Positions 47,373-60,675 of a stretch of 64,000 bases of DNA are shown here, in pieces. The notes beneath the pieces are model-generated. The model was not told where the DNA came from. It was given only the letters and a program-made list of their open reading frames with translations, and made no database searches. The translations under genes and the position numbers were made by a program. The DNA comes from an uncultured Planctomycetaceae bacterium (GTDB lineage: Bacteria; Planctomycetota; Phycisphaerae; SM23-33): contig CAZLBC010000001.1 in assembly GCA_964557575.1 (NCBI GenBank), positions 2,296 through 66,295 on the forward strand, in the 5' to 3' direction. Each line of letters starts with the position of its first letter. Within the stretch, counting starts at the first letter, position 1.

Positions 47373-47403
47373 GGCGATTCATGAGGATAATTTTGAATTT
47401 TAT

Positions 47404-47491
47404 GGCGGAATGCGGAGGACACGATCCTCAGTCGCCCTGCGACCCAACGGGTTAGCAACCCGCGCCAGCACGCCTGTCTGATTCGCATTCC
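47404..47491 (-). tRNA. tRNA-Ser (anticodon GCU), class II
   Basis: Acceptor GGAATGC/GCATTCC, G73 and encoded CCA. Anticodon loop UUGCUAA, long variable arm GTCGC-AGG-GCGAC. T-loop is unusual (AUCGUGU). Confidence 0.6.
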
Positions 47492-47493
47492 GA

Positions 47494-47582
47494 TGGCGGA
47501 GAGCGGAGGACACGATCCTCACACCGTATCGGTGCAAACGACTTTCGAGGCCGCTCCGGCGCGCCTGTCCGGTTCACTCTCC
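47494..47582 (-). tRNA. tRNA-Ser (anticodon CGA), class II
   Basis: Acceptor GGAGAGU/GCUCUCC. Loop CUCGAAA; long variable arm CACCG-AUA-CGGUG. Same unusual T-arm. Confidence 0.6.
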
Positions 47583-47729
47583 GCTGTTTCGCCGATCGAT
47601 CTCTTCGTTTACAACCCGCAAACGTTCCGCGTACTTCGGCCCCCACTGCTCGTACATCTTGCGATGAATCTTCAGCTTCGTCACGCAGAAGCTCTTGATC
47701 CTGCGCGCGTAATGTTCCAAGTCTTCCAT
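47574..47729 (-). CDS. small hypothetical protein
   Basis: GAGGA RBS; coupled to the upstream gene. The last codons and TGA lie within the 5' end of tRNA-Ser(CGA). Confidence 0.35.
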   Translation of the reverse strand: MEDLEHYARRIKSFCVTKLKIHRKMYEQWGPKYAERLRVVNEEIDRRNSGE

Positions 47730-47730
47730 G

Positions 47731-47985
47731 TCAATCCTCGACGACGTACTTGTCCGACGCGACCGTGACATAGTCGTAGTTCGTCGACAAATCCGATCCG
47801 AAATGAAGCTCGTCCATGGTGAACGGGCCGCCTTCCGCGTGCCTGCGCTTCACGCGCTTGACTCTTTCAACGTGGTCGACTTCCACGACGGAATCCTTGG
47901 CGAACTTCTCGTCGGTTGCCGTGTGCATAAAACACCCGCCAAAGCGTCTTTCGAGTTGCAAGTCTTCGACGAATCTAACCAGCAT
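47731..47985 (-). CDS. hypothetical protein
   Basis: Trimmed to the Met just downstream of tRNA-Ser(GGA). AGGGGAATAGGA upstream. Confidence 0.45.
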   Translation of the reverse strand: MLVRFVEDLQLERRFGGCFMHTATDEKFAKDSVVEVDHVERVKRVKRRHAEGGPFTMDELHFGSDLSTNYDYVTVASDKYVVED

Positions 47986-48003
47986 TCCTATTCCCCTGTA
48001 AAA

Positions 48004-48095
48004 TGGCGGAGAGCGGAGGACACGATCCTCAGGCGGTTTCTTCCGACCCGTCCGGATTCCAACCGGAGCCAGCGCGCCTGTCTGGTTCACTCCCC
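48004..48095 (-). tRNA. tRNA-Ser (anticodon GGA), class II
   Basis: Stem UCCGG/CCGGA with loop UUGGAAU. Shares its T-arm and acceptor 3' end with the other two Ser genes. Confidence 0.55.
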
Positions 48096-48226
48096 GGGAG
48101 TGCGAAATCGAGTTTGATCTTTTCAATCGGTCGCGCCGGAACGACGGTGACCTTGGTCACCTCGGTGATGTTCCCGAATCGGTCTCCGTAGAGAACAACA
48201 TCGGTTGCCACACTGTGAATGTTCAT
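48029..48226 (-). CDS. small hypothetical protein
   Basis: ATGA coupled to the upstream gene. The ORF runs 22 codons into tRNA-Ser(GGA); its true end is uncertain. Confidence 0.3.
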   Translation of the reverse strand: MNIHSVATDVVLYGDRFGNITEVTKVTVVPARPIEKIKLDFALPGSEPDRRAGSGWNPDGSEETA

Positions 48227-48504
48227 GTCGCGTCCGCCGCCTTCCCGTCCTCGACGTTCTGAAGAACATGCAACGCCGCGTCTTCCCAGTATGAGTCCCA
48301 AAACGGACAATGACTGTCGATGTCGGTTCGAACGCGGTGCAACGACGATTCCGGGTTCTTGCAGAAAAACTCGGCGGTCGCCGGAAGGTTTTCACGACCT
48401 TCGCTTCCGCGATACCAATGCCTGCACGTCCGGCATTTTTCCATCCAATCGGCGTGGACGCGGACCGCGAAACCCCACGGGTCTTCCTTCACGTGATACG
48501 CCAT
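48223..48504 (-). CDS. Cys/His-rich protein
   Basis: CRTCRH...HCPFW. Confidence 0.5.
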   Translation of the reverse strand: MAYHVKEDPWGFAVRVHADWMEKCRTCRHWYRGSEGRENLPATAEFFCKNPESSLHRVRTDIDSHCPFWDSYWEDAALHVLQNVEDGKAADAT

Positions 48505-48543
48505 TTCGCCCGACCTTTCATTTCAACCTGCTCCCGTAAAATG

Positions 48544-48633
48544 GCGGAAGGAGGGGGAGTCGAACCCCCAAGGCTTTTACGCTCGACCGGGTTCAGGCCG
48601 GTTGCCGTCTCCTGTTTCGGATTGCCCTTCCGC
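48544..48633 (-). tRNA. tRNA-Ser (anticodon UGA), class II
   Basis: T-arm GGGGGUUCGACUCCCCC. Acceptor GGAAGGG/UCCUUCC-G-CCA. Loop CCUGAAC (C33 is unusual). Confidence 0.5.
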
Positions 48634-48915
48634 GTCCCACGATATTCTACTTTTGAAAATTTCTGAAAGAGCCGGGTCAACACCCTTGAACTTTTCGTAC
48701 AGTTCTCGGTACGTCATCGAATACGCGCCTTCCGGGACTTCCTCCACCCATATAGGCGTGAACGGCGGTTCGAACGTTTTGCCAAAATGTTCTATCGTTA
48801 CCGGACCTTTTTCCCGGAGTACCCCGGTTACAGGTTCCAGCGCAGCGCGCGGTCCCAAGTATTTACGAAAAACCGGTTGAAGCGCGCCAAACGATTCCCT
48901 GTTACCGCCGCTCAT
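48577..48915 (-). CDS. hypothetical protein
   Basis: GGAAGGA RBS at Met29. The 3' end overlaps tRNA-Ser(UGA). Confidence 0.4.
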   Translation of the reverse strand: MSGGNRESFGALQPVFRKYLGPRAALEPVTGVLREKGPVTIEHFGKTFEPPFTPIWVEEVPEGAYSMTYRELYEKFKGVDPALSEIFKSRISWDAEGQSETGDGNRPEPGRA

Positions 48916-49058
48916 CGGCTTGTCCTTCCGCGACACGATCGGGCTTTCGACCCTTCGTTGCTTCAACGATCCGGTTGCTCGCGTCAATGATCGCGGCAAC
49001 CAGATCGTCCTTTTCCTTTTGCGTAGAACGCTTTTCTTGCTCGTTCATACCGATCCAC

Positions 49059-49634
49059 CTATGTCTTGACGAACGGCTGCCACGCGGGACGGGTCGCCGC
49101 CAGTTCAGCCAGTCGACGGTACGCCATCCACGAAGGCTTCTTCGGATCGACCCGAAGCCGCATTCCGGCTTGCTTCGGAGTCCGGTCAGCCTTGGTTTCG
49201 TTGCACTTCCGGCAGGACGCCACGCAGTTTTCCCACGTGGTCCTGCCTCGCTGGGACCGGGGAACGACGTGATCGATCGTCAACTCCTTCTTTTCGAACT
49301 GCTCGCCGCAGTAGGCGCAGCAGTTGTGCTCCCGCTTGAAGACCGCCGACTTGGAGTAGTTCACGGTGCGCTGCGGAACCTTGTCGTACTCCGCGAGAAC
49401 GATCACTTCCGGACATTCGAACTTGAAATCGCGCGCGCCGGGAACAAACGGCCGATCGGGCCGCACGCCGCGCTCGGCCCAGTCGTCCCACGTGTACGTT
49501 ATGAACGTCTCGTGGTCGACGACCGTCGCGCCGCCGGTGTATAGGTGGCCGATCGCGTCAGCGACCGTCGACACCGCGATCGGCATCCAGTTCCGGTTCA
49601 GAACCAGAACCGACATCTGAAGCACGTCCTGCAT
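49059..49634 (-). CDS. HNH homing endonuclease (free-standing)
   Basis: AAGGAGGG RBS. CAYCGEQF...LTIDHVVPRSQRG...WENCVASCRKCNETK HNH core. Confidence 0.7.
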   Translation of the reverse strand: MQDVLQMSVLVLNRNWMPIAVSTVADAIGHLYTGGATVVDHETFITYTWDDWAERGVRPDRPFVPGARDFKFECPEVIVLAEYDKVPQRTVNYSKSAVFKREHNCCAYCGEQFEKKELTIDHVVPRSQRGRTTWENCVASCRKCNETKADRTPKQAGMRLRVDPKKPSWMAYRRLAELAATRPAWQPFVKT

Positions 49635-49935
49635 CGCTGACGCCCTCCTTTGAAACAGGGACCCTTGAAAATTTTTCCCGAAGGAAATCGATATCACACC
49701 AGATGATTTTCCCTTCGAGCGTCAACAGGACGCCCGGATGATTCGGCGTTCGAACTGGGAGTCGAATGTGAACGGGGAAATCGCCGCCGGGCGGGACAGC
49801 CCGGACCTTGGCTTTCTTTCCATCCGCTCGATTGTACCAGACCCCCTCCCATTCGCTTCGGTGGTCCCGGGACGCCTTCTTTGGATTTCGCCGCTTCTGC
49901 GGACGCTTCTTGCGATTCTTTTTTTGTTTCGGCAT
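49558..49935 (-). CDS. hypothetical protein with polybasic N-terminus
   Basis: GAGGG RBS. The 3' end overlaps the HNH gene by about 77 nt. Confidence 0.4.
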   Translation of the reverse strand: MPKQKKNRKKRPQKRRNPKKASRDHRSEWEGVWYNRADGKKAKVRAVPPGGDFPVHIRLPVRTPNHPGVLLTLEGKIIWCDIDFLREKFSRVPVSKEGVSDAGRASDVGSGSEPELDADRGVDGR

Positions 49936-49956
49936 TCCGCCCTCGATCGTTAAAAA

Positions 49957-50030
49957 TGCCCCCGGTGAGGGTCGAACTCACACTGCCCGAGGCTTAAACT
50001 CGGTCCCTCTGCCAATTGGGGTACGGGGGC
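49957..50030 (-). tRNA. tRNA with Leu anticodon UAA, class I architecture
   Basis: Acceptor GCCCCCG/CGGGGGC, A73. D-arm CCCC-AAUUGGCAGA-GGGA. Anticodon stem CCGAG/CUCGG with loop UUUAAGC. 5-nt variable loop. Confidence 0.5.
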
Positions 50031-50036
50031 GTCGGT

Positions 50037-50324
50037 TTAGTCGTTGAAATCGAACCGCTCCCGGCGTTCCTCGTCTTCAATCCGCACCGACTCGGCTTCC
50101 GCCTGAACCGCCGGGTTTTCCATGTATGTCCGAAGCGCGCGGTAAACCGGAAAACGCTGCCCGTCGTACACCGACGGCGGATCATCTTCCATTTCGCCGA
50201 CGAGCCAGTCCAGATATAAAATGTCTTCGTCGGCGATGTCGCCGATCGTGGAACCCTTGTACTTGCCGAACGGAACGACGGTGTCTTCGGCTTGGCTGAA
50301 CGGCATTTCGTTTTGATCGGTCAT
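50037..50324 (-). CDS. DUF3820-like protein (PFGKYKG motif)
   Basis: GGGAGG RBS. VPFGKYKGSTIGDI...LDWL. Confidence 0.5.
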   Translation of the reverse strand: MTDQNEMPFSQAEDTVVPFGKYKGSTIGDIADEDILYLDWLVGEMEDDPPSVYDGQRFPVYRALRTYMENPAVQAEAESVRIEDEERRERFDFND

Positions 50325-50407
50325 CTAAAGCACCTCCCTCAACCGTAATATCGGATCAAAGGCGCGAAACGTTAAGTGCTTTTTCAAATTACAGGGGAAA
50401 TTTATAG

Positions 50408-50481
50408 TCCTCCGGGCGGGATTCGAACCTGCAACCGTCCCGTTATGAGCGGGGAACTCTAACCGTTGAGTTTACCGGAGG
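50408..50481 (-). tRNA. tRNA-Met (anticodon CAU; elongator or Ile-lysidine type)
   Basis: Acceptor CCUCCGG/CCGGAGG, A73. Loop CUCAUAA. Confidence 0.6.
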
Positions 50482-50484
50482 AGA

Positions 50485-50520
50485 TGGCGCGCCCGCGAGG
50501 ACTCGAACCCCGAATCTTCC
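50485..50520 (-). other. tRNA 3'-half-like fragment (T-arm + acceptor 3' strand + CCA)
   Basis: CGGGG-UUCGAGU-CCUCG-CGGGCGC-G-CCA with no 5' acceptor partner. Followed upstream by a 16-bp hairpin. Confidence 0.4.
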
Positions 50521-50554
50521 TGCGCCTTTCGTCTTTTCGACCAGTACCTCCTGC

Positions 50555-50591
50555 TTCTAAACAGTAGAAGCAGAGGGTACGAATGCCAAGA
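50555..50591. repeat. 16-bp near-perfect hairpin
   Basis: GTACCTCCTGCTTCTA-AACAG-TAGAAGCAGAGGGTAC between tRNA-like elements. Confidence 0.5.
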
Positions 50592-50597
50592 TAAAAG

Positions 50598-50678
50598 CAG
50601 CGGCGACGGGAGTCGAACCCGCATGTGTCCAGTTACCCTTTCTCCAGTTTAGAAGACTGAGGGGATACACCGCTGATC
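50598..50678 (-). tRNA. tRNA-like gene, anticodon undetermined
   Basis: Good acceptor (AGCGGUG/CGCCGCU) and T-arm (GCGGG-UUCGACU-CCCGU), but the central cloverleaf could not be resolved by eye. Confidence 0.35.
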
Positions 50679-50865
50679 CGTTGTGCTATGAGCGCGTTTA
50701 GTTTTGGCCTGCCGTCGGGTTACGATCCCGACTCCCCAGTCTCGCCTCCAGCTTCAGGATGGCCATCCGTCTGCTATCGGCCCACGTGGAAGGGGCGCGG
50801 TCCAACGATCATCGACAGGTTTTGAAAAACGCGAGTTTTCCGTGCCCGGAAAACGGGAAATTCAA

Positions 50866-50943
50866 TGGTGCCCCCGGTCGGATTCGAACCGACACCTTGA
50901 CCGCTTTTGAAGCGGCTCCCTCTGCCAATTGGGGTACGGGGGC
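50866..50943 (-). tRNA. tRNA with Leu anticodon CAA, class I architecture
   Basis: Same 5' half as 49957..50030. Loop UUCAAAA. A73 and CCA encoded. Confidence 0.5.
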
Positions 50944-51101
50944 GACCTCGGACGCCTTGCGCTCCCTCTTCGACGAAGGACACCTTGGCAGGTCTGCGCC
51001 TTGCCGGTGCCGGGATCGCCGGGGTATTTAGGCCACCGGCCCGTCAGAGTCCCCGACGCAACCCGCGTCGCGAAGTACGAGCCTGTCGTACAGGACCCTG
51101 A

Positions 51102-51126
51102 CGGGCCGAACGGGATTCGAACCCGC
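51102..51126 (-). other. tRNA 3'-half-like fragment
   Basis: GCGGG-UUCGAAU-CCCGU-UCGGCCC-G with no 5' partner. The next tRNA starts 27 nt away. Confidence 0.35.
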
Positions 51127-51152
51127 ATCTTCCGAGCTTCTCTAAAATCAAA

Positions 51153-51227
51153 TGGGACGGGTGGGATTCGAACCCACGGTTTCCTGATTAAAAGTCAGGT
51201 GCATTAGGCCAACTATGCTACCGACCC
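51153..51227 (-). tRNA. tRNA-Lys (anticodon UUU)
   Basis: Stem CCUGA/UCAGG with loop CUUUUAA. D-stem GCAU/AUGC. Confidence 0.6.
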
Positions 51228-51426
51228 GTGTACTTTTTCCACCGAACAACCTCCGTCCACTTGTTTTTCGCCGATGGAGGCTCGACTTCCATAATCTGTT
51301 TCGCACTGCATTCCACACAGTATCGAAATTCAGCCCATCGCTGCCATTTATGAAATCCAATCGAGCAACGAAGAGGACGTTTCAAAAATCCCAGCATCGC
51401 CAAACGCCTCGAAAAAACAGTAAGAG

Positions 51427-51499
51427 CTGCTCCGGCAGGGTTCGAACCTGCAATCTTCTGATTCAGAGTCAGACGCGTTTCCATTTACGCCACGGAGCA
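51427..51499 (-). tRNA. tRNA-Gln (anticodon CUG)
   Basis: U1:A72 as in tRNA-Gln. Stem UCUGA/UCAGA with loop CUCUGAA. Confidence 0.65.
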
Positions 51500-51501
51500 G
51501 A

Positions 51502-51577
51502 TGGTCCTGCCGGAAGGAATCGAACCTTCTAATACCACCTTATCAGAGTGGCCTCTGTACCATTCGAGTTCGACAGG
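51502..51577 (-). tRNA. tRNA-Ile (anticodon GAU)
   Basis: Loop CUGAUAA. CCA encoded. Confidence 0.6.
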
Positions 51578-51582
51578 AAAAA

Positions 51583-51656
51583 TACGTCCGGCGGGATTCG
51601 AACCCGCGACCTTCGGTTTAGGAAACCGATGCTCTATCCGATTGAGCCACGGACGC
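51583..51656 (-). tRNA. tRNA-Arg (anticodon CCU)
   Basis: D-arm GCUC-AAUCGGAUA-GAGC. Loop UUCCUAA. Confidence 0.65.
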
Positions 51657-51657
51657 G

Positions 51658-51891
51658 TCACGATCCGCCGTAGACGGGATTGTACGGCGACGTCGCAGAA
51701 GCATTCATTTCATACACGCTCACGCCGGTCGCGTCCGTCACGACGGTCTCTTCGGTGACGATGGACACGTCGGCGTAATACTGCGAAAGCAGAGAAGTCA
51801 TCTCGGCGGCGACGCCGGTCAAGACGACTTTCTTCTCGGCTCCGGGAAGCGTTGAATCCGGGATGGTAACGACGATTTTGAATCCGGCCAT
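51658..51891 (-). CDS. hypothetical protein
   Basis: GGAGGAG RBS. Abuts tRNA-Arg(CCU). Confidence 0.5.
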   Translation of the reverse strand: MAGFKIVVTIPDSTLPGAEKKVVLTGVAAEMTSLLSQYYADVSIVTEETVVTDATGVSVYEMNASATSPYNPVYGGS

Positions 51892-51924
51892 GACGGTCTC
51901 CTCCGTTGTTTCAACCGAGGCGGA

Positions 51925-52749
51925 TTATAACACGAGCCGGAAACCGTCGCCAACAGACAGGGTGGACACGTACGACATGGCCTTCTCGCGCGCTTCCAAC
52001 AGGCGGACGAACTCTTTTTGAGAGCCGCCCTTGTCGGGGTGCGCGACCTTGGCTTTCTCGCGGAAGTTGCGCATGACGACGCGCTTCGCCGCTTCCATGT
52101 CGTCCGGGAGTTCCACGCGGCTGACGTCGAGGACGTCCCACCACCATTCCGACGGAGGCTTGACAGGTTCCGGTTCCCTCGCGGGATCAGGTTCCGACCG
52201 AGCCGATCCGAGTTTCGGAATGAAGTGGATTACGCTCAACGACTTGTCGGAGTCCGGGTAGCCGAACATGGTCAACGTCGTCTTGAACGTCAACCCGTGG
52301 TGCGCCGCGACGACAAGCGGTTCAATCGCCTGTTCGCGGACTCCGGGATTCGTCCGAAGCTGGACGTACTCCCTGACCTCGGCGAGCGTCGGCTTGTCCG
52401 CCTTCGACTTCAAAAAGACGTCCGCCGCGTGGTAAATCTCCCACGGGGTGGACAGCCAGCTTCCGACTGTTTCCTCCCCGTCACCATCCGGTCTTTGCGG
52501 GAACTCGCCCTGCGGAAAATGCACGTACTCGGCGGTGTACCAAGGTTCGCGTTCGTACACGCCCATTCGGCTCAATTTCATCTCCGGCTTCACGTTATAC
52601 GCGACGACGGGCATCCCCGTGGCGGTGCGTCCCTTAAACACGGTTCGAGTTCCCATGAAGTCCGTCTTCTCGTACGTGTAAACGTAGACGGGGCGCGGTC
52701 TAGGCGGTTCTCGCGTGTAGTCGGTGAACAGGATAAGAAGCTCGTTCAT
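51925..52749 (-). CDS. J-domain (DnaJ-like) protein
   Basis: C-terminal ...KVAHPDKGGSQKEFVRLLEAREKA with an HPD motif. A promoter-like motif lies upstream. Confidence 0.55.
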   Translation of the reverse strand: MNELLILFTDYTREPPRPRPVYVYTYEKTDFMGTRTVFKGRTATGMPVVAYNVKPEMKLSRMGVYEREPWYTAEYVHFPQGEFPQRPDGDGEETVGSWLSTPWEIYHAADVFLKSKADKPTLAEVREYVQLRTNPGVREQAIEPLVVAAHHGLTFKTTLTMFGYPDSDKSLSVIHFIPKLGSARSEPDPAREPEPVKPPSEWWWDVLDVSRVELPDDMEAAKRVVMRNFREKAKVAHPDKGGSQKEFVRLLEAREKAMSYVSTLSVGDGFRLVL

Positions 52750-52765
52750 GGATCAAGAAATAACT

Positions 52766-52785
52766 CGGGAAGTTTCGTGCGTCAA
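52766..52785. promoter_or_regulatory. single promoter-like unit upstream of J-domain gene
   Basis: AACTCGGGAAGTTTCGTGC. Confidence 0.3.
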
Positions 52786-52797
52786 ATGAAAAATAGA

Positions 52798-52872
52798 TGG
52801 TACTCCCGGCAGGAGTCGAACCTGCATCTCGACATTCGGAGTGTCGCGCCTTGTCCGTTGGGCCACGGGAGT
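52798..52872 (-). tRNA. tRNA-Arg (anticodon CCG)
   Basis: Stem CGACA/UGUCG with loop CUCCGAA. CCA encoded. Confidence 0.6.
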
Positions 52873-52877
52873 AAAAA

Positions 52878-52954
52878 TGGCATCCGGCGAGGGACTCGAA
52901 CCCCCAATCGCGACATTCGTAGTGTCGTGCCTTATCCAGTTAGGCCAGCCGGAT
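52878..52954 (-). tRNA. tRNA-Arg (anticodon ACG)
   Basis: D-arm GCCU-AACUGGAUA-AGGC. Loop CUACGAA. Confidence 0.6.
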
Positions 52955-52995
52955 GCATTCGCGGAACGTTATCGGTTGTCAAAGAGCATTCAAAA

Positions 52996-53068
52996 TTACC
53001 CCGGCAGGGTTCGAACCTGCAACCTTCTGATTCAAAGTCAGAAACGCTTCCAGTTGCGCCACGGGGTA
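52996..53068 (-). tRNA. tRNA-Gln (anticodon UUG)
   Basis: U1:A72. Stem UCUGA/UCAGA with loop CUUUGAA. Confidence 0.65.
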
Positions 53069-53076
53069 CCGAATAT

Positions 53077-53152
53077 TGGAGGCCCCAGCCGGAGTCGAAC
53101 CGAGCGATAAACGATTTTGCAAACCGTCCCCTTGCCGCTTGGGTATGGAGCC
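53077..53152 (-). tRNA. tRNA-Cys (anticodon GCA)
   Basis: Loop UUGCAAA. U73 discriminator and CCA. Confidence 0.6.
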
Positions 53153-53158
53153 ATGGAG

Positions 53159-53232
53159 GGTGACCGACGAGGTTCGAACTCGTACTCTTCTGACTCACAA
53201 TCAGGTATGTTGCCAATTACACTACGGTCACC
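53159..53232 (-). tRNA. tRNA-His (anticodon GUG)
   Basis: Extra G-1 pairing with C73. Loop UUGUGAG. Confidence 0.65.
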
Positions 53233-53243
53233 GTCGAATGCTA

Positions 53244-53333
53244 TGGTGCGGGATGAAGGAATTGAACCTTGTCGGCAGCCACCACGATGTTTTGCGCCAG
53301 AGACTTTACAGGCCCCCTCGTGGAACATCCCGC
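53244..53333 (-). tRNA. tRNA-Tyr-like (anticodon GUA), atypical 90-nt structure
   Basis: Perfect acceptor GCGGGAU/AUCCCGC-A-CCA and a T-loop UUCAAUU. Loop CUGUAAA in a GGGGC/GUCUC stem, but no room for a normal D-arm. CCACGA/UCGUGG pairing encloses the anticodon arm. Confidence 0.35.
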
Positions 53334-53349
53334 ACTTGGTTTTCAAAGA

Positions 53350-54291
53350 TCAAGCCTGCGACAGTTTCAGCCAGATCGCGACCATGATTTCGTCGACGAC
53401 TTCGTCAACGGTGCGATCCTTGGTTTCAACAACGCAGTCGGCTTCCGCCGGTTCTTCGTACGGATCGTCGATCCCGGTGAATCCCTTGATCTCACCGGCG
53501 CGGGCTTTCGCGTACAAGCCCTTGACGTCCCGCGCTTCGCACTCTTCGAGACTGGTGGCGACGTGGACCATGAAGAACCGCTTGTCGCCGATCAGGTCTC
53601 TCGCGGACTGCCGGGCTTCCGCATACGGCGAGATCGCCGCCGTGATCGCGATTCCTCCGACGTCGGCGACCGACTTCGCCACGAAGGAAAGCCTTCGAAT
53701 GTTTTCGTCCCGGTCCTCTTTCGAGAATCCGAGTCCCCGGTTCAAGTTCGTCCGGACCTCGTCGCCGTCCAGAACCTTCACCCGGTGTCCGAGTTCGTTC
53801 AACCGGCTTTCAAGAGCCACAGCGATAGTGCTCTTGCCAGAACCTGACAGCCCGGTAAACCAGATGACAAGGCCATTGCCTGCGTCACCACCGGTTGCGA
53901 GGACTTCCGCCGTCGCCATTGGAACCTTTTCCCGCCACGACTCGTCGCCTTCCGCCATGAGCGTTCGGACTTGGGTCGCCGAGATTCCGCCGATCTCCGG
54001 CGGCACGACGTCCTGTAAGTCACGAACTTCATAGCCGACCTTTCGTCCGACGACCACCGCCGCGATGTCCGGGATGGCCATGACGCGAACACAACCGGTT
54101 TTGATTTCGTCGGAGTACACGGCGCGGATCATCGCGATCCGCTCTCCCAGCGTGTACGGGTCTCCGTCGTTGACCGGCGTGTCCCGCACGGCGATCAAGA
54201 CGTTCTCGTCGCGATCCAGAGCTTGCTGGATCAGCCATTTGTGGCCATTGTGGAACGGCTGCCACCGGCCGATGTAAAGCGCGTACTTCAT
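53350..54291 (-). CDS. cysC: bifunctional HxGH-nucleotidyltransferase-like / adenylylsulfate (APS) kinase
   Basis: N-terminal [12 protein letters not shown] ((H/T)xGH nucleotidyltransferase). C-terminal [13 protein letters not shown]...LDGDEVR...AISPY matches the APS kinase core. GAAGGGAG RBS. Confidence 0.75.
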
Positions 54292-54356
54292 TCGTAAACT
54301 CCCTTCAAAAAAATTTGCGCTGAAGAGAGGATAGCAACGCCGCGCTTTTCATTCAA

Positions 54357-54433
54357 TGGTGCTCCGGGTGAGAGTCGAACTCACACTGTACAGTGTCTGA
54401 AACTGCTCCCTCTGCCAATTGGGGTACCGGAGC
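54357..54433 (-). tRNA. tRNA with Leu anticodon CAG, class I architecture
   Basis: Same D-arm and T-arm family as 49957..50030. Stem GCAGU/ACUGU with loop UUCAGAC. A73 and CCA. Confidence 0.5.
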
Positions 54434-54438
54434 GTAGA

Positions 54439-54512
54439 TGTCCACGGTGAGAGTCGAACTCACACTTTCATGATCCTTAGTCATGTCCCTCTGCCAATTG
54501 GGGTACGTGGAC
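54439..54512 (-). tRNA. tRNA with Leu anticodon AAG, class I architecture
   Basis: Stem CAUGA/UCAUG with loop CUAAGGA. A73. Confidence 0.5.
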
Positions 54513-54518
54513 GAATTT

Positions 54519-54594
54519 TGGCTCTCCGGGGTGGACTCGAACCACCAACCTACTGCTTAACAGGCAGTCGCTGCTACCATTGAGCTACCGGAGA
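54519..54594 (-). tRNA. tRNA-Asn (anticodon GUU)
   Basis: Stem ACUGC/GCAGU with loop CUGUUAA. CCA encoded. Confidence 0.6.
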
Positions 54595-54601
54595 ACGTAA
54601 A

Positions 54602-54674
54602 TGGACCGGAGGGGAATCGAACCCCTGACCTTCTACTTGCAAAACAGATGCTCTACCGATTGAGCTACCAGCCC
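54602..54674 (-). tRNA. tRNA-Ala (anticodon UGC)
   Basis: G3:U70 wobble pair. Loop UUUGCAA. Confidence 0.65.
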
Positions 54675-54766
54675 GTGAACGCCGTCGGAAAAGGTTGCCG
54701 GGCGTTATTTGATTGTGCATCATTCACATTGATGTGCGTTTACCAGTTACGCCAACCCGCCGTCAA

Positions 54767-54793
54767 GGTGGCGGGTGAAGGATTCGAACCTCC
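54767..54793 (-). other. tRNA 3'-half-like element in a hairpin
   Basis: GGAGG-UUCGAAU-CCUUC-ACCCGCC-A-CC. The acceptor-like strand pairs with a downstream GGCGGGU instead of a 5' tRNA half. Confidence 0.3.
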
Positions 54794-54838
54794 ATTACTG
54801 AAACGTCTGGACAGGTTCCGACGGCGAATATTGCGTCA

Positions 54839-54910
54839 ACGAGTGCCGGATTCGAACCCAAAACCAACCACCCTCGTACACGCGGGTTCGTCGCGCTAGG
54901 ACTCGTTGAC
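54839..54910 (-). pseudogene. degenerate tRNA-like sequence
   Basis: Perfect 7-bp acceptor AACGAGU/ACUCGUU and UUCGAAU loop, but a poor T-stem and no D-arm. Confidence 0.3.
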
Positions 54911-54936
54911 TTGATTTTCAAAGATCGAAAAATTTA

Positions 54937-55011
54937 TGGTGGCTCCCCGCCGAGTCGAACGGCGACTTCCGCGTTTTCAGCGCGGCGTACACTCCAGTAT
55001 ACGAGAGAGCC
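54937..55011 (-). tRNA. tRNA-Phe (anticodon GAA)
   Basis: Stem CCGCG/CGCGG with loop CUGAAAA. CCA encoded. Confidence 0.6.
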
Positions 55012-55013
55012 AA

Positions 55014-55050
55014 TTAAAAAACCCCTGTCCGGAGGGCCGAACAGGGGTTT
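55014..55050. terminator. rho-independent terminator (strong on minus strand)
   Basis: CCCCTGT-CCGGAGGGCCGA-ACAGGGG flanked by an A-run and a T-run. Precedes tRNA-Phe on the minus strand. Confidence 0.55.
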
Positions 55051-55246
55051 CGTGTGTGCAACCGGTGTTCAGCCCTACGTGGTGCCCTCCAAATTGAAGG
55101 CATAAATCGCCGCGCACGACAGGAGGTTTCTGTCGTTGTGGCGATGTATCTGTTGGCTGAATCGTTTGGTGAACATCATCATGTTTCCGTTCGCGCCTTT
55201 CGGCGTTCCGTTCGTATCACGATGGAAATGTACAAGGGTCGACGCG

Positions 55247-55272
55247 CGGCGTCAAGAAACTTCCCAATATTT
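55247..55272. promoter_or_regulatory. same unit in inverted orientation within palindrome CAAGAAA...TTTCTTG
   Basis: CAAGAAACTTCCCAATATTTTTCTTG. Confidence 0.3.
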
Positions 55273-55281
55273 TTCTTGTTT

Positions 55282-55527
55282 TTATTCCGACGTCTTCCAC
55301 GTCCACGTTACCGCTTCCTCCGGCTCTTCCGGACCGCGATCCGGAATAATCACGATCCGGCTCGTCAACGAAACATCGCAAACCGCGTCGGATTCCGCGA
55401 TTTCCCGGATCAACTCCCGAATCGCGGTCATGTGCTTCGTGATCTTCGATCGGTACTCCGCGAGTTCCGGACGGATGTCGTTCACGAGTTCTTCCTTCGG
55501 AACAAGCACGTTTTTAACGGTTTTCAT
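55282..55527 (-). CDS. hypothetical protein
   Basis: GAGGTGA RBS. Confidence 0.5.
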   Translation of the reverse strand: MKTVKNVLVPKEELVNDIRPELAEYRSKITKHMTAIRELIREIAESDAVCDVSLTSRIVIIPDRGPEEPEEAVTWTWKTSE

Positions 55528-55530
55528 GCG

Positions 55531-56136
55531 TCACCTCGCGTTATGGTTCGATTGCACCTGCCGGATTCCAAACCCGTCGCTGTGCATAACGATTTGCGAT
55601 GCGGGATTGTTCGTCTCGGAACCTGCGTCAAGCCGAACGCGGTACGCTTCGCCGAAAGACTCGTCCAGCCGTTCGACGATAACGCCCGGCGTGCGCGCGC
55701 TGAAAACATCGGTGATCACCCCGTCGCCGACCCGGTAGTCCACGCCAATGTCTCGCAAGTTGAAAACGGCCTGCAAACCGCCGAGCGAAGACATGCTGTC
55801 CAGTACGCGCGGGTCGTCCGGGTTCCTGTCCACATCGAACGACCGCTCTTCGCCGTCGCCGTAAAACGCGGACACCTTGCGGCCGACGACGTCAACCACC
55901 GCGCCGAACAGCGCGCCGATAACGTGATCGCTGGCGATCCACAACACGGGGTCGCCTACGCGGAAATCCTTCGTGAGAAGCGTTGGGGGCGCGACAGGAC
56001 GTCGAACGCGCTGCAGTACGGCATCTGCGGACGGGGGAAGGTTAAACGCCGCCAGAGAAGCGTACAAACGGCTTCCGCGCGGAACGCCGTTGTCCACGAC
56101 CTTCCCGCGAACGTGAAACTTCATGTTGGATTCCAC
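55531..56136 (-). CDS. hypothetical protein
   Basis: GTG start after GAGGAG. Confidence 0.5.
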   Translation of the reverse strand: MESNMKFHVRGKVVDNGVPRGSRLYASLAAFNLPPSADAVLQRVRRPVAPPTLLTKDFRVGDPVLWIASDHVIGALFGAVVDVVGRKVSAFYGDGEERSFDVDRNPDDPRVLDSMSSLGGLQAVFNLRDIGVDYRVGDGVITDVFSARTPGVIVERLDESFGEAYRVRLDAGSETNNPASQIVMHSDGFGIRQVQSNHNAR

Positions 56137-56600
56137 TGCACGATCTCCTCGACGTCAACATCCTCGAAATCCGTCAAGGGGATCGCGCGGCCCTCCTTGC
56201 GAAGTCCGAGTACCGTCTGGTCTAACAACTGAAGTATCGGCGGACTGACAAACACGAGGCACTTCCGGAACTCGTCTTCCGCGACGTCGGCGATCTTCCT
56301 AAGCGGGGTTAAACGGATCGCCTGCCGGAACATGTGAAGGGAGGCGCGCATGTAGACTTCCGTGTCGAGGCTGTCGCCCAACCGGTAACCTTCAACGCGG
56401 CGATGCGGCGCGCCGCGCTCCACGGGACCCGCGTTCTTGGCTAAGTCGCGCTCAACCCGCAAGCGGCGCGACACGAACTCCAGCGAATCATAGACAACGA
56501 TCCCGATCGGAAACGCGTCGGGGTTGATGACAACCGGGGCGATCACCGTGTTTCCCTCGGCGACGTACGCGTAAACCCATTTTCCCTCAAATCGGGGCGT
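56121..56600 (-). CDS. C-terminal portion of a protein that may be joined to the upstream ORF by a +1 frameshift
   Basis: The protein-like frame begins with no start codon at ...FEGKWVYAYVAEG. It is reached from ORF 56587..56901 by a +1 shift at AUU UGA G. Confidence 0.3.
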   Translation of the reverse strand, partial: TPRFEGKWVYAYVAEGNTVIAPVVINPDAFPIGIVVYDSLEFVSRRLRVERDLAKNAGPVERGAPHRRVEGYRLGDSLDTEVYMRASLHMFRQAIRLTPLRKIADVAEDEFRKCLVFVSPPILQLLDQTVLGLRKEGRAIPLTDFEDVDVEEIVQWNPT

Positions 56601-56901
56601 CAGCACAACTGGATTCCTCTCCGAACCGTCCCTTGCGAAGCACGCGAAGAAGCGGGTACACTTTCGGGTTCTCTTCCGCAAGCGCGGCGAAGAAACGACA
56701 CCGCTTGACAATGAAGTCGGTGCGCCCCACACCGCCGACCACGCAAGCGACACGCGGCGACGGTTCGTCTTCCATGTAAACGCGCGCGACCTCGGCTTCC
56801 GGGATGATCTTCGAAAGCATCACGAAGGCTTCGTTGAACTCCCGGCGGAGGCCGTTCTCGTTAACCCAGTTCAGGACTTCCGGTTCCACGTTCTTTTTCA
56901 T
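56587..56901 (-). CDS. hypothetical protein (N-terminal part of possible frameshifted gene)
   Basis: GGAGAG RBS. Ends at a TGA that overlaps the continuing frame. Confidence 0.45.
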   Translation of the reverse strand: MKKNVEPEVLNWVNENGLRREFNEAFVMLSKIIPEAEVARVYMEDEPSPRVACVVGGVGRTDFIVKRCRFFAALAEENPKVYPLLRVLRKGRFGEESSCADAPI

Positions 56902-57094
56902 TATCGCTCTCCGTGCCGCGTTCCGCGTCGAGAGCAGTATCCGAGATCAGTTTCGAATAGTCAAATTCGTCCCCGGTCGGGCTTTCAACCGTTGAAAGCA
57001 TGACCGACGCAAGCTGATGTCCGATGCTCGATCTCCAAAGCCATGTGGACCTTTTCCGGGGAAAACCCCCGAATTTCATTGAACGAAATCATCC
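56861..57094 (-). CDS. small protein whose two halves lie in different frames (possible +1 frameshift)
   Basis: ATG at 57094 sits 7 nt after AAGGAG and gives MISFNEIRGFSPEKVHMALEIEHRTSACVGHAFNG, then TGA. The +1 frame continues ESPTGDEFDYSKLISD... to 56861. Confidence 0.3.
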
Positions 57095-57171
57095 GGTTTC
57101 TCCTTGTAAAAGAAGCCCGCGAGGGGAACGCGGGCTGCTGACGGGGTGATCGACGGATTTTGGGGATACCG

Positions 57172-57486
57172 TCAATCGTTGGGTTTCGGGTGGATTCGGG
57201 CCAGAATGTCGACTTGAGAAATCAGCATGTAATCCTCGTCGTCGACTTTGATTTCGGTTCCCCCGTACATCGCGATGATGACGCGGTCTCCGCTTTTGAG
57301 GGGGCACTCCCCGTCCCCGTCCTCGACGGGAACATTGATCACGGTCGCCTTGTTCGTGGCCTGCTGCGCCGTGTGCGGCAGTATAATGCCGCCTTTCGAG
57401 ACGTCTTCCGGCTTGTCTTTTTGAACGAGAATACGATCGTTCAACGGTTCAAGTCGGCACGTCTTCTTTTTCGCTTCGGACGTCAT
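57172..57486 (-). CDS. groES: co-chaperonin GroES
   Basis: GGAAGGAG RBS. LEPLNDRILVQK...GGIILPHTAQ...GDRVIIAMYGGTEIKVDDEDYMLISQVDILA matches the Cpn10 family. Confidence 0.8.
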   Translation of the reverse strand: MTSEAKKKTCRLEPLNDRILVQKDKPEDVSKGGIILPHTAQQATNKATVINVPVEDGDGECPLKSGDRVIIAMYGGTEIKVDDEDYMLISQVDILARIHPKPND

Positions 57487-57533
57487 TCCGGACTCCTTCC
57501 TGAAAAAATGGTGGATCGTGCTAAAAAATTTTT

Positions 57534-57640
57534 GACCCTGACAGGATTCGAACCTGCACTGCATTAGTTTCTTGCACCACTTCACAGCCCGGCTCTTGGT
57601 GCAACACACCGGGGCGTCTGCCATTTCCGCCACAGGATCA
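57534..57640 (-). other. tRNA-like element (about 107 nt) with unresolved fold
   Basis: 3' end GCAGG-UUCGAAU-CCUGU-CAGGGUC-A pairs with GAUCCUG 107 nt upstream. D-loop AAAUGGCAGA resembles the Leu-type family. Confidence 0.25.
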
Positions 57641-57648
57641 AATTCTAA

Positions 57649-57670
57649 ACACACACACACACACACACAC
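57649..57670. repeat. (AC)11 dinucleotide microsatellite
   Basis: ACACACACACACACACACACAC in the non-coding region between the tRNA-like element and the tmRNA. Confidence 0.8.
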
Positions 57671-57852
57671 GACTTTGGCGAACCGCAGCGTAACGCATCC
57701 GCACCGACCGCCATTGACCCTACTCCGGTAACGCGGCTCAGTCCTGACCAAGCCCCTTCGGGTCCGCGCCGACCTGATGGATGCCGAACTATAGCGTCAC
57801 GTGCCGGACTTACAACATCACGTACTCGACGATCTCAAAGCCGTGAATATTT

Positions 57853-58315
57853 TGGTGGAGGCGAGGGGAATCGAACCCCTGTGCTGAATCTCTTCCGTAT
57901 CAGCGTCCCCATGTTCACCCTAGTCCTGCCTCACTCCAAGGGTACGGTGAGGGGCTTGTTGTGACACGTTTCCAGTGCCGCACACGGGTCGTGCGCAAAT
58001 GAGGAGTGCGTCTTTCCGCGTCGTCCCTCGTATGTACCTCGAACGCCGGGACTTACTTGTCAGCCGTCTCTCCGCACAGGGTTGTCCCCGTGGCCCCCAT
58101 GTTTCGCTCGCCGCTACTTAGGGTGCGCTGTCCGTTCTTGTAGGTGTCCCCATGACGTTACCAGAACAATCTCACGTCATGGAGTGCGGCTAGGCCGCGT
58201 TTGCTAAAGCAGGTTCAGCAATTAGTTGTTGAGCGCAGTTTTTAACGTGGACTGACGTTCATACCACGACATGCAGCCGATACTTCCAACGACCAGTCGA
58301 AACCAAGTCGCCCCC
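57853..58315 (-). ncRNA. ssrA: tmRNA (SsrA-like)
   Basis: 5' end GGGGGCGACUUGGUUUCGACUGG pairs with 3' end AGGGG-UUCGAUU-CCCCU-CGCCUCC-A-CCA. The UUCGAC 5' motif matches bacterial tmRNAs. Internal candidate tag reading frame ...AEPALANAA-UAG. No protein-coding ORF over 800 nt. Confidence 0.55.
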
Positions 58316-58352
58316 GATTTTCAAAGATCACGCTGAAACGGGTAATTCCGTT

Positions 58353-58850
58353 TCAGCGGCGCAAAATACTGTCGAAAATCCCGGAGAATCCGCTGACGAA
58401 AACCGGGCAATTACAAAATTCGATCCCGGCGGCTTCGATCCGCTGCTCGATCTCAGCCTGCAACACGAGCCAAGCGATCGTCCCGATCTTGTCCGCCGTA
58501 GAACGCCCGACGGGCTTCTCCGAAAATGTTCCGTCATCGTCGGGAACCATCACCGAGACGCGGAATCCGGACGGTTTGACTGGTACCGTGACCGCGTCTT
58601 CGGAATACTTGGCCGCGCTTTCGTCAGCCGAGTAGGTCTCCGTGACGTAGATTTCGCGTACTCCCTTGAATTTGACCTTGATCAGTTCGTCCCCCGCGTC
58701 CTCGTGCGAGACGGCCTCTTGATCCGGCATGTCGACCTCTGCGGCCGTAAACATGTCGGAAACCAAATCGACGAGTTCAAACAAACGCTTGACGCGCTCT
58801 TCCTCGGTCCGCTCGACACGGAGCTTCGCTTCAACCTGAATCTTCGGCAT
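58353..58850 (-). CDS. hypothetical protein
   Basis: GAGGAGG RBS. Lies downstream of the tmRNA. Confidence 0.55.
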   Translation of the reverse strand: MPKIQVEAKLRVERTEEERVKRLFELVDLVSDMFTAAEVDMPDQEAVSHEDAGDELIKVKFKGVREIYVTETYSADESAAKYSEDAVTVPVKPSGFRVSVMVPDDDGTFSEKPVGRSTADKIGTIAWLVLQAEIEQRIEAAGIEFCNCPVFVSGFSGIFDSILRR

Positions 58851-58918
58851 CTTTTTTTTCCTCCTCGATTACCGATTCCTCTACACCCGTATATATCGGC
58901 AAACGAGGGCAAAAAACA

Positions 58919-59386
58919 TTAGTCTTTCTTCGACTTTTTCTTCTTTTTTCGTTTCTTGCGGTTCAGCGGCGACGGCTCGTCCTGCGGAAGGTACCCGCTT
59001 CCGGGTTGTCCCATCGCAGCGGAGGTCTGCGAGAATCCGCCGACATTCCCCGACGTCATCGCTTCGCCGACGGTGCCCTTGTCGGCATTGTCCCGGACTG
59101 TCCGCGCGGCTTTCAGCAGTCCGGCCTTGACCTCGTCGAACGGGATCACCGTGGAGTAGTAATACGGGTCCTCCGTCAGGTGATCCAGCGTGATTTCCAA
59201 CGCCTCTCCGGCGTCGTCGGTGTGTTCCATTTCAACAGCAATGCCCGCGACAATCTGGCAGTAGCAAAAATCTCTGACACGTGCGTCGTCCCCGACGCCG
59301 CCTTCGACCTCATTACCCGCCATGCTCGGGTCGTCATCGGATTCCCGGAGCATCCGGTGCATCACGTCTCGACTTGTACGCTTCAT
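58919..59386 (-). CDS. hypothetical protein with poly-Lys C-terminus
   Basis: ACGGAGGG RBS at Met19. Confidence 0.5.
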   Translation of the reverse strand: MKRTSRDVMHRMLRESDDDPSMAGNEVEGGVGDDARVRDFCYCQIVAGIAVEMEHTDDAGEALEITLDHLTEDPYYYSTVIPFDEVKAGLLKAARTVRDNADKGTVGEAMTSGNVGGFSQTSAAMGQPGSGYLPQDEPSPLNRKKRKKKKKSKKD

Positions 59387-59444
59387 AAAAAAGCCCTCCG
59401 TTTCGCAACCAAGTATGCGACGGAGGGCCTCACGTGTCAAATAA

Positions 59445-59515
59445 TGCGTCGGACGGGGATCGAACCCGTTACCACGTTTTTAGAGAACGCCGCCTATCCA
59501 TTCGGCTTCCGACGC
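59445..59515 (-). tRNA. tRNA with anticodon CUA (amber-suppressor-like)
   Basis: Acceptor GCGUCGG/CCGACGC, A73. Anticodon stem GCGUU/AACGU with loop CUCUAAA (U33, anticodon CUA, purine 37). T-arm ACGGG-UUCGAUC-CCCGU. Confidence 0.5.
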
Positions 59516-59523
59516 AATTCGAC

Positions 59524-60652: not shown

Positions 60653-60675
60653 GTCGTGTACCTCCTCAAAGTGGT

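Follow-up and report, generated by a model that had tools for sequence, protein, structure and literature searches.

Short-armed tRNALeu in described systems

Canonical bacterial tRNALeu is a type II molecule, in which a variable stem-loop of 10–17 nt accompanies a 3-bp D stem, a non-Watson-Crick 13:22 pair, the 9-nt D loop AAUUGGYAG, A73 and A15:U48. In E. coli, leucine identity requires neither the long arm nor the anticodon, and the positions that LeuRS is reported to use are A73, U8:A14, A15:U48, G18G19, A20a and the D/T elbow (PMC9976931).

A bacterial tRNALeu of type I shape has been described from S. coelicolor, which has a single chromosomal type I isoacceptor, tRNALeu(CAA), with the 5-nt variable loop ACAGC, alongside four type II tRNALeu species and class II tRNASer. 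It is leucylated in vitro by its own LeuRS with a kcat/Km of 6.25 s-1 uM-1 (Fan et al. 2019, NAR 47:6369, PMC6614811) and needs a variable loop of 5 nt or more that contains nucleotide 48. In this tRNA, the only type I member tested biochemically, A73 is not the key determinant (PMC6614811). Human mitochondrial LeuRS also charges it; in the reverse pairing, the human mitochondrial tRNA is not a substrate of S. coelicolor LeuRS (PMC6614811). E. coli LeuRS failed to charge the S. coelicolor tRNA (PMC6614811), and thus not all bacterial LeuRS enzymes accept the short shape. Animal mitochondrial tRNALeu is likewise type I, with A73 and A14 as its identity elements (PMC9976931).

Short tRNA-Leu genes are also present in cultured phages, namely Vibrio phage KVP40 (Leu-1 and Leu-2), Mycobacterium phage Cali and other Bxz1-like phages (three genes), and Erwinia phage phiEa104 and other Felix-O1-like phages. 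They are annotated plainly as tRNA-Leu, with one as 'Undet', and our literature search found discussion neither of short-armed tRNALeu in phages nor of the shape of these particular genes, the type as such being treated in a single paper among the literature searched. Like the genes described below, they are 74–78 nt long, lie in tRNA arrays and carry the D loop AAUUGGCAG, C13.A22 and A73, and the phiEa104 set also includes an AAG anticodon. They differ in belonging to other phage lineages and hosts and in their unrelated acceptor stems, many of which have G1.U72.

Four tRNALeu genes in a phage tRNA array

The window (the whole 64-kb stretch of DNA analysed) contains four tRNA-Leu genes identified by ARAGORN, all on the minus strand, and their positions and anticodons (UAA, CAA, CAG and AAG) agree with the original prediction. 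All four exceed the gathering score of the Rfam tRNA model RF00005 (29 bits), the UAA gene being recovered by this model only when a short stretch was searched. With R1, a covariance model of the short-armed family built from 56 members with the window genes excluded, they score 86.0–87.9 bits, as compared to 62.8 bits for the best other tRNA in the window. The features are as follows.

47403..63991, minus strand: one-strand tRNA array with at least 24 tRNA genes, a tmRNA, interspersed small ORFs and HNH endonucleases
49957..50030, minus strand: type I tRNALeu(UAA), 74 nt, CCA not encoded, G37 (ARAGORN; RF00005 48.7 bits; R1 87.4 bits)
50866..50943, minus strand: type I tRNALeu(CAA), 75 nt plus encoded CCA, A37 (ARAGORN; RF00005 52.7 bits; R1 86.0 bits)
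54357..54433, minus strand: type I tRNALeu(CAG), 74 nt plus encoded CCA, A37 (ARAGORN; RF00005 52.1 bits; R1 87.9 bits)
54439..54512, minus strand: type I tRNALeu(AAG), 74 nt, CCA not encoded, G37 (ARAGORN; RF00005 56.0 bits; R1 86.7 bits)

We consider it probable (roughly 85%) that these genes, part of a tRNA array in a large phage whose portal is T4-like, encode functional type I tRNALeu species. The AAG gene lies 5 nt upstream of the CAG gene, and a terminator-like hairpin (50854-50835) is located 12 nt 3' of the CAA gene. The four tRNASer genes of the array retain their long arms, and no intact type II tRNALeu was found within the 64 kb. The arrangement thus differs from that of S. coelicolor, with four type I genes on a phage rather than one on a chromosome; the S. 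coelicolor gene was likened to them by its published description, and the alignments were made with other actinomycetotal relatives. A 2H phosphoesterase-like protein is also encoded in the window, and no TAG recoding signal could be tied to the CUA suppressor tRNA.

The positional parse of the UAA gene reads GCCCCCG UA CCCC AAUUGGCAG AGGG A CCGAG UUUAAGC CUCGG GCAGU GUGAG UUCGACC CUCAC CGGGGGC A. The D arm, CCCC AAUUGGCAG AGGG, is common to all four genes and has a 3-bp stem, a C13.A22 mismatch and the 9-nt D loop AAUUGGCAG; the 18-mer CCCCAATTGGCAGAGGGA has precisely four copies across the window, one in each gene, where shuffled sequences give an expectation of 0.01. Without CCA, all four genes are 74–75 nt long, and a long variable arm is impossible because of this length. 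None has the variable stem-loop of at least 10 nt that a type II tRNA requires, and the long tRNALeu genes in related loci measure 81–89 nt. The idea that the gene finder had overlooked a long arm is rejected on the length together with the covariance-model alignments.

A 5-nt variable loop had been predicted for all four. This holds for the UAA, CAG and AAG genes, while the loop of the CAA gene can be read as 6 nt, or as 5 nt if a U bulges out of the anticodon stem; in all four the loop ends in U48. The loop sequences in the window are GCAGU (UAA gene), ACAGU (CAG gene) and AAAGU, where S. coelicolor has ACAGC. A73, as predicted, U8:A14, A15:U48, G18G19, A20a and the T loop UUCGA (U54 U55 C56 .. 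A58) are present in every gene. The elbows are fully canonical, unlike the degenerate D and T loops of the floppy mitochondrial tRNAs, which share with the window genes the missing arm. The window genes share their anticodons with type II tRNALeu, but have C10-G25 where the latter usually has G10-C25.

The four genes had also been described as sharing the acceptor/D-arm region and the T arm and as differing only in the anticodon stem-loop, and one rival reading is recent shuffling within the phage, or artificial construction, with four anticodon arms swapped into one scaffold. The 18-nt D arm is indeed the same in all four, and two of the genes match over their first 27 nt. The acceptor stems differ: their 5' strands are GCCCCCG in the UAA and CAA genes, GCUCCGG in the CAG gene and GUCCACG in the AAG gene, with a compensating change in the 3' strand in each case (GCUCCGG/CCGGAGC and GUCCACG/CGUGGAC). 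The T stem of the CAA gene is also distinct (GUCGG/CCGAC), and with the anticodon arm left aside the genes share just 78–89% identity. The body of the UAA gene is closer to an actinomycetotal chromosomal tRNALeu(CAA) (95% identity) than to its neighbours in the window. Furthermore, 23 viral contigs that are unrelated contain the exact 18-mer, and a form degenerate at two positions is present in some 75 tRNALeu genes of bacteria, whose acceptor stems are quite different. Since it is shared by unrelated phages and bacteria, the identity of the D arm reflects constraint on the family rather than recency, and shuffling or construction is a very improbable origin for the genes.

The wider family of type I tRNALeu genes

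Judged by their sequences, the window genes belong to a known but little-discussed family of type I tRNALeu and are not an oddity of this window. We collected 143 unique short tRNALeu sequences from 129 loci in viral contigs, bacterial genomes and cultured phages. Their anticodons are TAA (36), CAA (34), TAG (31), GAG (20), CAG (15-16) and AAG (6), and none is a non-Leu anticodon. C13.A22 (130/135) and U48 (136/143) are highly conserved, and A37 is the usual state. A73, proposed in the original prediction as the main leucine identity element, is conserved in 139 of the 143, but in the sole biochemically tested member it is not the key determinant.

The stems of the family covary strongly. Paired cells reach 98.9%, as compared to 61.3% after shuffling, and double changes were found at all 20 pairs in all four stems; the covariation score is 0.98, against 0.21 for shuffled and 0.12–0.16 for slid alignments. 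The same loci keep long arms in tRNASer (38 of 39) and tRNATyr (15 of 15), whereas 161 of the 179 tRNALeu genes surveyed are short-armed, the loci having been chosen for containing such a gene. When the D-arm layout was compared among isotypes with a full cloverleaf parse, short and long tRNALeu alike mainly combined a non-Watson-Crick 13:22 pair, a D loop of 9 nt and GG at offset 4, a layout that was rare in other isotypes.

The original prediction took the long arm to be universal among bacterial tRNALeu, which is incorrect. Type I genes are present on the chromosomes of Actinomycetota and other bacteria, in many Actinomycetota as a single gene, and in many phages, several of whose arrays have whole Leu sets of type I only. 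No short tRNALeu was found when 5,426 E. coli genomes were searched. The nearest sequences to the window genes are the actinomycetotal chromosomal copies, with 88–95% identity outside the anticodon arm. Apart from nucleotide 34, the anticodon arm of the AAG gene equals that of a UAG-anticodon type I tRNALeu present both in a MAG of Armatimonadota and in a contig from a metagenome.

Searches aimed at the phage itself gave little. Orthologous arrays from close phage relatives were sought and not found, and tblastx against array contigs from Planctomycetota and other MAGs matched little besides HNH endonuclease. The relatives of an APS-kinase fusion ORF were all from low-GC phages with no tRNALeu nearby, and an exact look-up of the APS-kinase protein returned a 4.3-kb contig only. 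For a 274-aa ORF within the array, viral and metagenome contigs yielded no relatives, and a metagenome scan with the D and anticodon arms of the AAG gene yielded two unrelated contigs only. As to the host, the sequences suggest only that the tRNA bodies are most like those of Actinomycetota.

For the window alone, the finding is of an ordinary kind: a phage tRNA array with four Leu tRNAs of a described but obscure type. Its wider interest is that textbooks treat the long arm as a fixed trait of bacterial tRNALeu, while short-armed genes occur in such familiar phages as KVP40 and the Bxz1-like and Felix-O1-like groups and on many actinomycetotal chromosomes. The family is a natural test set for how LeuRS recognizes tRNA shape, and for why E. 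coli LeuRS rejects the tested member when phages of the related Enterobacterales Erwinia and Salmonella carry such genes. It could equally serve to ask whether loss of the arm shields phage tRNAs from host factors.

Probable leucylation, loss of the arm and predicted decoding

The four tRNAs are most likely charged by the host LeuRS. The array transcript would be processed and CCA added to the UAA and AAG tRNAs, and the host LeuRS, which would read neither the anticodon nor a long arm, would charge all four with leucine. No LeuRS was found in the 64-kb window by Pfam scans of 50 ORFs. Among the class II isotypes, leucine alone has a synthetase that makes no use of the extra arm, which would explain why in these arrays the arm is lost in tRNALeu and not in tRNASer or tRNATyr. 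The earlier suggestion that these are leucine tRNAs of class I shape is well supported by their membership of the family, its Leu-only anticodons, their D arm and tertiary identity positions of Leu type, and the in vitro leucylation of the S. coelicolor tRNA.

Charging with another amino acid, and hence recoding of Leu codons, is scarcely credible. Most other synthetases read the anticodon, and anticodon-reading enzymes could not take six Leu anticodons on one scaffold. The genes also lack G3:U70, the alanine identity element, as well as a long arm for SerRS, and no evidence in support of such charging was found.

The genes could alternatively be relics without function, or decoys resembling tRNAs, that the host does not aminoacylate. 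The same array has several tRNA-like pieces that are broken or aberrant, CCA is not encoded in two of the four genes, and one type I tRNALeu is rejected by E. coli LeuRS (PMC6614811). Against this, no stem is disrupted and the genes differ from one another by compensatory changes, the conserved tertiary positions are all present, the family-model scores are 86–88 bits, and the four anticodons are non-redundant and fit the codon use of the phage. We therefore regard decay or mimicry as improbable.

The short arm may itself have been selected, in that it would hide phage tRNALeu from host toxins or nucleases, or from a phage factor destroying host tRNAs, that grip the long arm, so that the phage would be able to supply tRNALeu in place of a vulnerable host pool. 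This proposal would add a selective reason to functional tRNALeu genes rather than replace that reading, and we hold it to be unlikely. In its favour, short tRNALeu genes occur in phages of E. coli-like bacteria whose own tRNALeu is type II (KVP40 in Vibrio, phiEa104 in Erwinia), and their absence from the E. coli genomes, the type-I-only phage sets and the 2H phosphoesterase-like protein point the same way. It counts against the proposal that, to our knowledge, neither a defence system nor a nuclease attacks tRNALeu by way of the arm. The toxin MenT3 does pick tRNAs via the long variable loop, but it favours tRNASer and spares tRNALeu (PMC11541572). Moreover, evasion is not needed for the single chromosomal gene of many Actinomycetota, and inheritance or capture from such a host suffices for the window genes, given their 88–95% body identity to those copies. 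A broader version, which we find similarly doubtful, is that the short form is favoured by mobile elements and spreads among phages of diverse hosts, including those with long-armed tRNALeu only, being kept since LeuRS charges it and arm-gripping factors miss it; the swap would be complete here, with one gene relying on A-to-I editing outside Bacilli.

As functional tRNALeu species, the four would decode as follows: the UAA tRNA would read UUA and UUG, the CAA tRNA UUG and the CAG tRNA CUG. The anticodon loop of the AAG gene is CUAAGGA, with A34; after deamination to I34 by a TadA-type enzyme, this tRNA would read CUU, CUC and CUA, whereas unedited A34 would read CUU, and CUC and CUA poorly. 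TadA is known to deaminate a bacterial tRNALeu(AAG), a tRNA reported among bacteria almost only from Bacilli (PMC13249217). In Lactobacillales, tRNALeu(AAG) shares A34 with the window gene and, read as IAG, decodes CUU, CUC and CUA (PMC13249217). That tRNA is chromosomal and from low-GC Bacilli, phages being unmentioned in PMC13249217, while the window gene belongs to a phage. The Pfam scans of the 50 ORFs found no TadA-like deaminase domain in the window.

Nucleotide 37 also sets the genes apart from type II tRNALeu, in which the CUN readers usually have G37, as against mostly A37 in the type I family; the G37 of the UAA gene and the A37 of the CAG gene reverse the canonical bacterial pattern. 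If A34 is converted to I34, the four tRNAs together would form a self-sufficient set for the six Leu codons, weighted to the four most used. Over 25 ORFs of the window, Leu codon use is CTG 0.28, TTG 0.26, CTC 0.22, CTT 0.19, TTA 0.03 and CTA 0.03.

Structure of the four short-armed tRNALeu genes

ARAGORN located all four genes and agrees with the original prediction on their coordinates and Leu anticodons; the strand is to be given as minus.

49957-50030, minus strand, tRNA-Leu, anticodon UAA
50866-50943, minus strand, tRNA-Leu, anticodon CAA
54357-54433, minus strand, tRNA-Leu, anticodon CAG
54439-54512, minus strand, tRNA-Leu, anticodon AAG

The Rfam tRNA model scored the four genes at 48.7–56.0 bits (gathering score, 29). 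A positional parse of the minus strand revealed in each a 7-bp acceptor stem followed by U8 and A9, and a D arm of the form CCCC-AAUUGGCAG-AGGG followed by A26. The anticodon stem has 5 bp with a 7-nt loop and is followed by a short variable loop, while the T stem has 5 bp with a UUCGA-type loop and the discriminator is A73. An extra arm was ruled out, as a length of 74–75 nt leaves no space for it. All four genes contain A73, A15:U48, G18G19, A20a and the elbow pairs, which form the Leu identity set of E. coli (Giege and Eriani 2023, PMC9976931), and two of the four encode CCA.

The genes had been described as sharing an acceptor/D arm, a T arm and a 5-nt variable loop. The D arm is indeed common to all, its 18-mer occurring in four copies in the window versus 0.01 expected, but the acceptor stem exists in three different versions, each compensated on the 3' side. 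The T arm is likewise not identical throughout, with the CAA gene bearing its own T stem. The variable loop is short in every gene, although that of the CAA gene can be read either as 6 nt or as 5 nt with a bulged U. Using a family covariance model built on 56 non-redundant sequences, with the window genes left out, we obtained 86.0–87.9 bits for the four genes, as compared to 62.8 bits for the best other tRNA of the window.

Distribution and conservation of the family

A scan of viral contigs with the exact 18-mer D-arm motif yielded 23 loci, and in 21 of these the motif lies inside a tRNA of 74–79 nt whose anticodon is of the Leu type and whose acceptor stem is unrelated. Whole Leu sets of the short-armed type are present in several viral arrays, as at locus L005 (UAA, UAG, CAA and GAG); the array of locus L012 contains GAG, UAA, CAA and CAG, and other viral arrays carry short and long tRNALeu together. 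The cellular scan, in which a slightly degenerate motif was applied to one genome per bacterial or archaeal species, gave 105 loci, about 75 of which bear a short tRNALeu. One group consists of single chromosomal genes in Armatimonadota, Paracoccus and Actinomycetota (Klenkia, Frankiaceae, Geodermatophilaceae, Kribbella, Nocardia, Pseudonocardia, Demequina, Acidimicrobiales, Coriobacteriia and Streptacidiphilus). The other resides in arrays of 12–26 tRNA genes on MAG contigs of Planctomycetota, Alphaproteobacteria and others. No short tRNALeu was found across 5,426 complete E. coli genomes.

In cultured phages, the short genes are annotated as tRNA-Leu. They occur in KVP40 (two genes), in Mycobacterium phage Cali along with about 90 further mycobacteriophages, in Erwinia phage phiEa104 as well as other Felix-O1-like phages (one gene having the AAG anticodon), and in phages of Streptomyces, Gordonia, Microbacterium, Sinorhizobium, Myxococcus, Synechococcus, Enterococcus and Lactobacillus. 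A phiEa104 gene annotated 'tRNA-Undet' (3278-3354 of locus L164, NC_015292.1 25064-25140) combines the complete type I Leu scaffold (CCCC AAUUGGCAG AGGG, A73, CCA) with a UAA anticodon, and is probably the third short-armed tRNALeu of that phage.

From 129 loci and the window we collected 179 tRNALeu, 161 short and 18 long, counts that over-represent the D-arm motif by which the loci were picked and are not a census. In the same loci, long arms are retained by 38 of 39 tRNASer and all 15 tRNATyr. The 143 unique short sequences bear the anticodons TAA (36), CAA (34), TAG (31), GAG (20), CAG (15–16) and AAG (6), and none has a non-Leu anticodon. A73 is present in 139/143 and U48 in 136/143, the variable loop has 5 nt in 122 and 6 nt in 21, and C13.A22 is found in 130/135. 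The D-arm layout (a non-Watson-Crick 13:22, a 9-nt loop and GG at offset 4) is common to short- and long-armed tRNALeu and rare in other isotypes.

Covariation was assessed on an alignment of the 56 non-redundant sequences, again excluding the window genes. Standard pairs fill 98.9% of the cells, as compared to 61.3% in shuffles, both-sided changes occur at 20 of 20 pairs, and the covariation score is 0.98, versus 0.21 for shuffles and 0.12–0.16 for slid controls. The cloverleaf parser chooses the loop lengths that give most pairing; its output agrees with a MAFFT alignment made independently and with the results from Infernal.

Several other, unusual features recur among the 143 sequences. 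C10-G25 replaces the near-universal G10 in 92, and G1.U72 is present in 45, mostly phage copies. Most CUN-reading members have A37 rather than G37 (UAG 20/31, GAG 18/20, CAG 13/15).

Function, decoding and origin

Judging from their sequences, the four window genes are best read as working leucine tRNAs and are almost certainly functional. LeuRS belongs to the small number of synthetases that ignore the anticodon, and any Leu anticodon is therefore possible on one scaffold. To our knowledge, the other synthetases of class II tRNAs all need the extra arm and LeuRS does not, which fits the loss of the arm in Leu alone in these arrays. Leu identity in E. coli requires neither the anticodon nor the long arm (Giege and Eriani 2023, PMC9976931).

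The four genes are a real feature of an already known kind. The type I tRNALeu(CAA) of S. coelicolor, with the variable loop ACAGC, is leucylated by its own LeuRS and by human mitochondrial LeuRS, but not by E. coli LeuRS, and its acceptance hinges on the enzyme's leucine-specific domain (Fan et al. 2019, PMC6614811). In that system the variable loop needs at least 5 nt, including nt 48, and A73 is not critical. In M. tuberculosis, long loops are present only in tRNALeu-2, -3 and -5 (MenT3 paper, PMC11541572), which suggests that the remaining Leu tRNAs have short loops. Fan et al. describe bacterial tRNALeu as almost all type II and do not mention phages, and we found no paper discussing short-armed tRNALeu in phages. 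What seems under-described is their frequency among phages, some of which infect hosts whose own tRNALeu are long-armed.

The four anticodons have non-overlapping roles. The UAA tRNA would read UUA/UUG, the CAA tRNA UUG and the CAG tRNA CUG, while the AAG tRNA would read CUU, plus CUC and CUA if A34 were deaminated to inosine; in Streptococcus tRNALeu(AAG), TadA performs this conversion and extends reading to CUC and CUA (PMC13249217). Across 25 ORFs of the window, Leu is encoded by TTG (26%), CTG (28%), CTC (22%), CTT (19%), TTA (3%) and CTA (3%), and the four-tRNA set thus matches demand. We infer that the four tRNAs would undergo processing and charging, with CCA addition to the two that do not encode it and A34 editing in the AAG tRNA. 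Neither a LeuRS nor a nucleoside deaminase was found among the 50 window ORFs scanned.

With the anticodon arm left out, the four genes are 78–89% identical to each other, whereas their identity to chromosomal type I tRNALeu of Actinomycetota reaches 95% (loci L097 and L031; 88% for L042). This closer identity speaks against recent swapping of anticodon arms into one scaffold within the phage. As far as sequence similarity can indicate, the host may be an actinobacterium or a similar organism, or the genes may have been captured from one. In the anticodon arm, the AAG gene and a UAG-anticodon relative differ at nt 34 only, so that one U34-to-A34 change could have made the AAG gene.

The phage and its tRNA array

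The window, with a GC content of about 58%, is derived from a large phage, and no relatives of it were found. It encodes a T4-type portal, SbcCD-like proteins, GroES, an EcoRI-type methylase, and a ribonucleotide reductase and an SNF2 helicase that are both split by inteins or homing endonucleases. ARAGORN detected 23 tRNA genes, which lie at 47.5–64 kb, every one on the minus strand. Besides the Leu genes, the array carries four long-armed tRNASer, one tmRNA and one CUA suppressor tRNA. Stop-free runs are lengthened no more than expected if TAG is taken as sense, and 5 of 25 window ORFs end in TAG; hence there is no sign of TAG recoding in the window.

Further elements of the array, all on the minus strand, are as follows.

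47403-47491, fourth long-armed tRNASer (GCU), CCA encoded, seen only with relaxed ARAGORN and missed by default
50482-50597, 3'-half-like tRNA piece with a CCA end
50598-50675, 77-nt tRNA-like element, 30.5 bits with the Rfam tRNA model and 32.2 with the Sec model
50950-51152, long hairpin of very high stability, separating the CAA tRNA gene from the Lys tRNA gene (203 nt, about -93 kcal/mol)
~51110-51131, lone T arm, inside 51100-51152
53243-53334, 92-nt tRNA-like element with CCA, scoring well below threshold
54675-54936, tRNA pieces (see below)
57533-57639, tRNA-like element (see below)
57853-58315, tmRNA (Rfam RF00023, 88.9 bits, full length)
59444-59516, CUA-anticodon (amber suppressor) tRNA, 'Pyl' in ARAGORN, 52.8 bits with the Rfam tRNA model

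The tag frame of the tmRNA, as read off the alignment, is GCU GAA CCU GCU UUA GCA AAC GCG GCC UAG (AEPALANAA); relaxed ARAGORN reads the tmRNA as permuted, with another tag.

Selfish elements are abundant (2527-6231, 13616-16477, 35459-39172, 49059-49697 and 61464-62564, minus strand). Intein and HNH or LAGLIDADG insertions interrupt the ribonucleotide reductase, the SNF2 helicase and a 1237-aa protein, and free-standing HNH endonuclease ORFs lie within the array. The HNH ORF at 49059-49697 (minus strand) shares about 45% identity with HNH ORFs from tRNA arrays on Planctomycetota MAG contigs.

In the 54675-54936 region, two pieces that each consist of a T arm and a 3' acceptor part (one of them ends in ACCCGCCACC) precede a matching 5' half, GGCGGGU UG GCGU AACUGGUAAACGC ..., an order resembling that of a permuted or split tRNA gene. 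Weak Leu-model matches occur at 54696-54761 and 54777-54797. The element at 57533-57639, directly upstream of the GroES coding region, has a type II Leu-style D arm (GCGG AAAUGGCAG ACGC), A73, G3.U70, an anticodon loop of ~14 nt and a variable region of ~31 nt. It scores 31.9 bits with the Rfam tRNA model and 22.9 bits with the type I Leu model, and may be a long-armed tRNALeu that has decayed, or an element of another kind.
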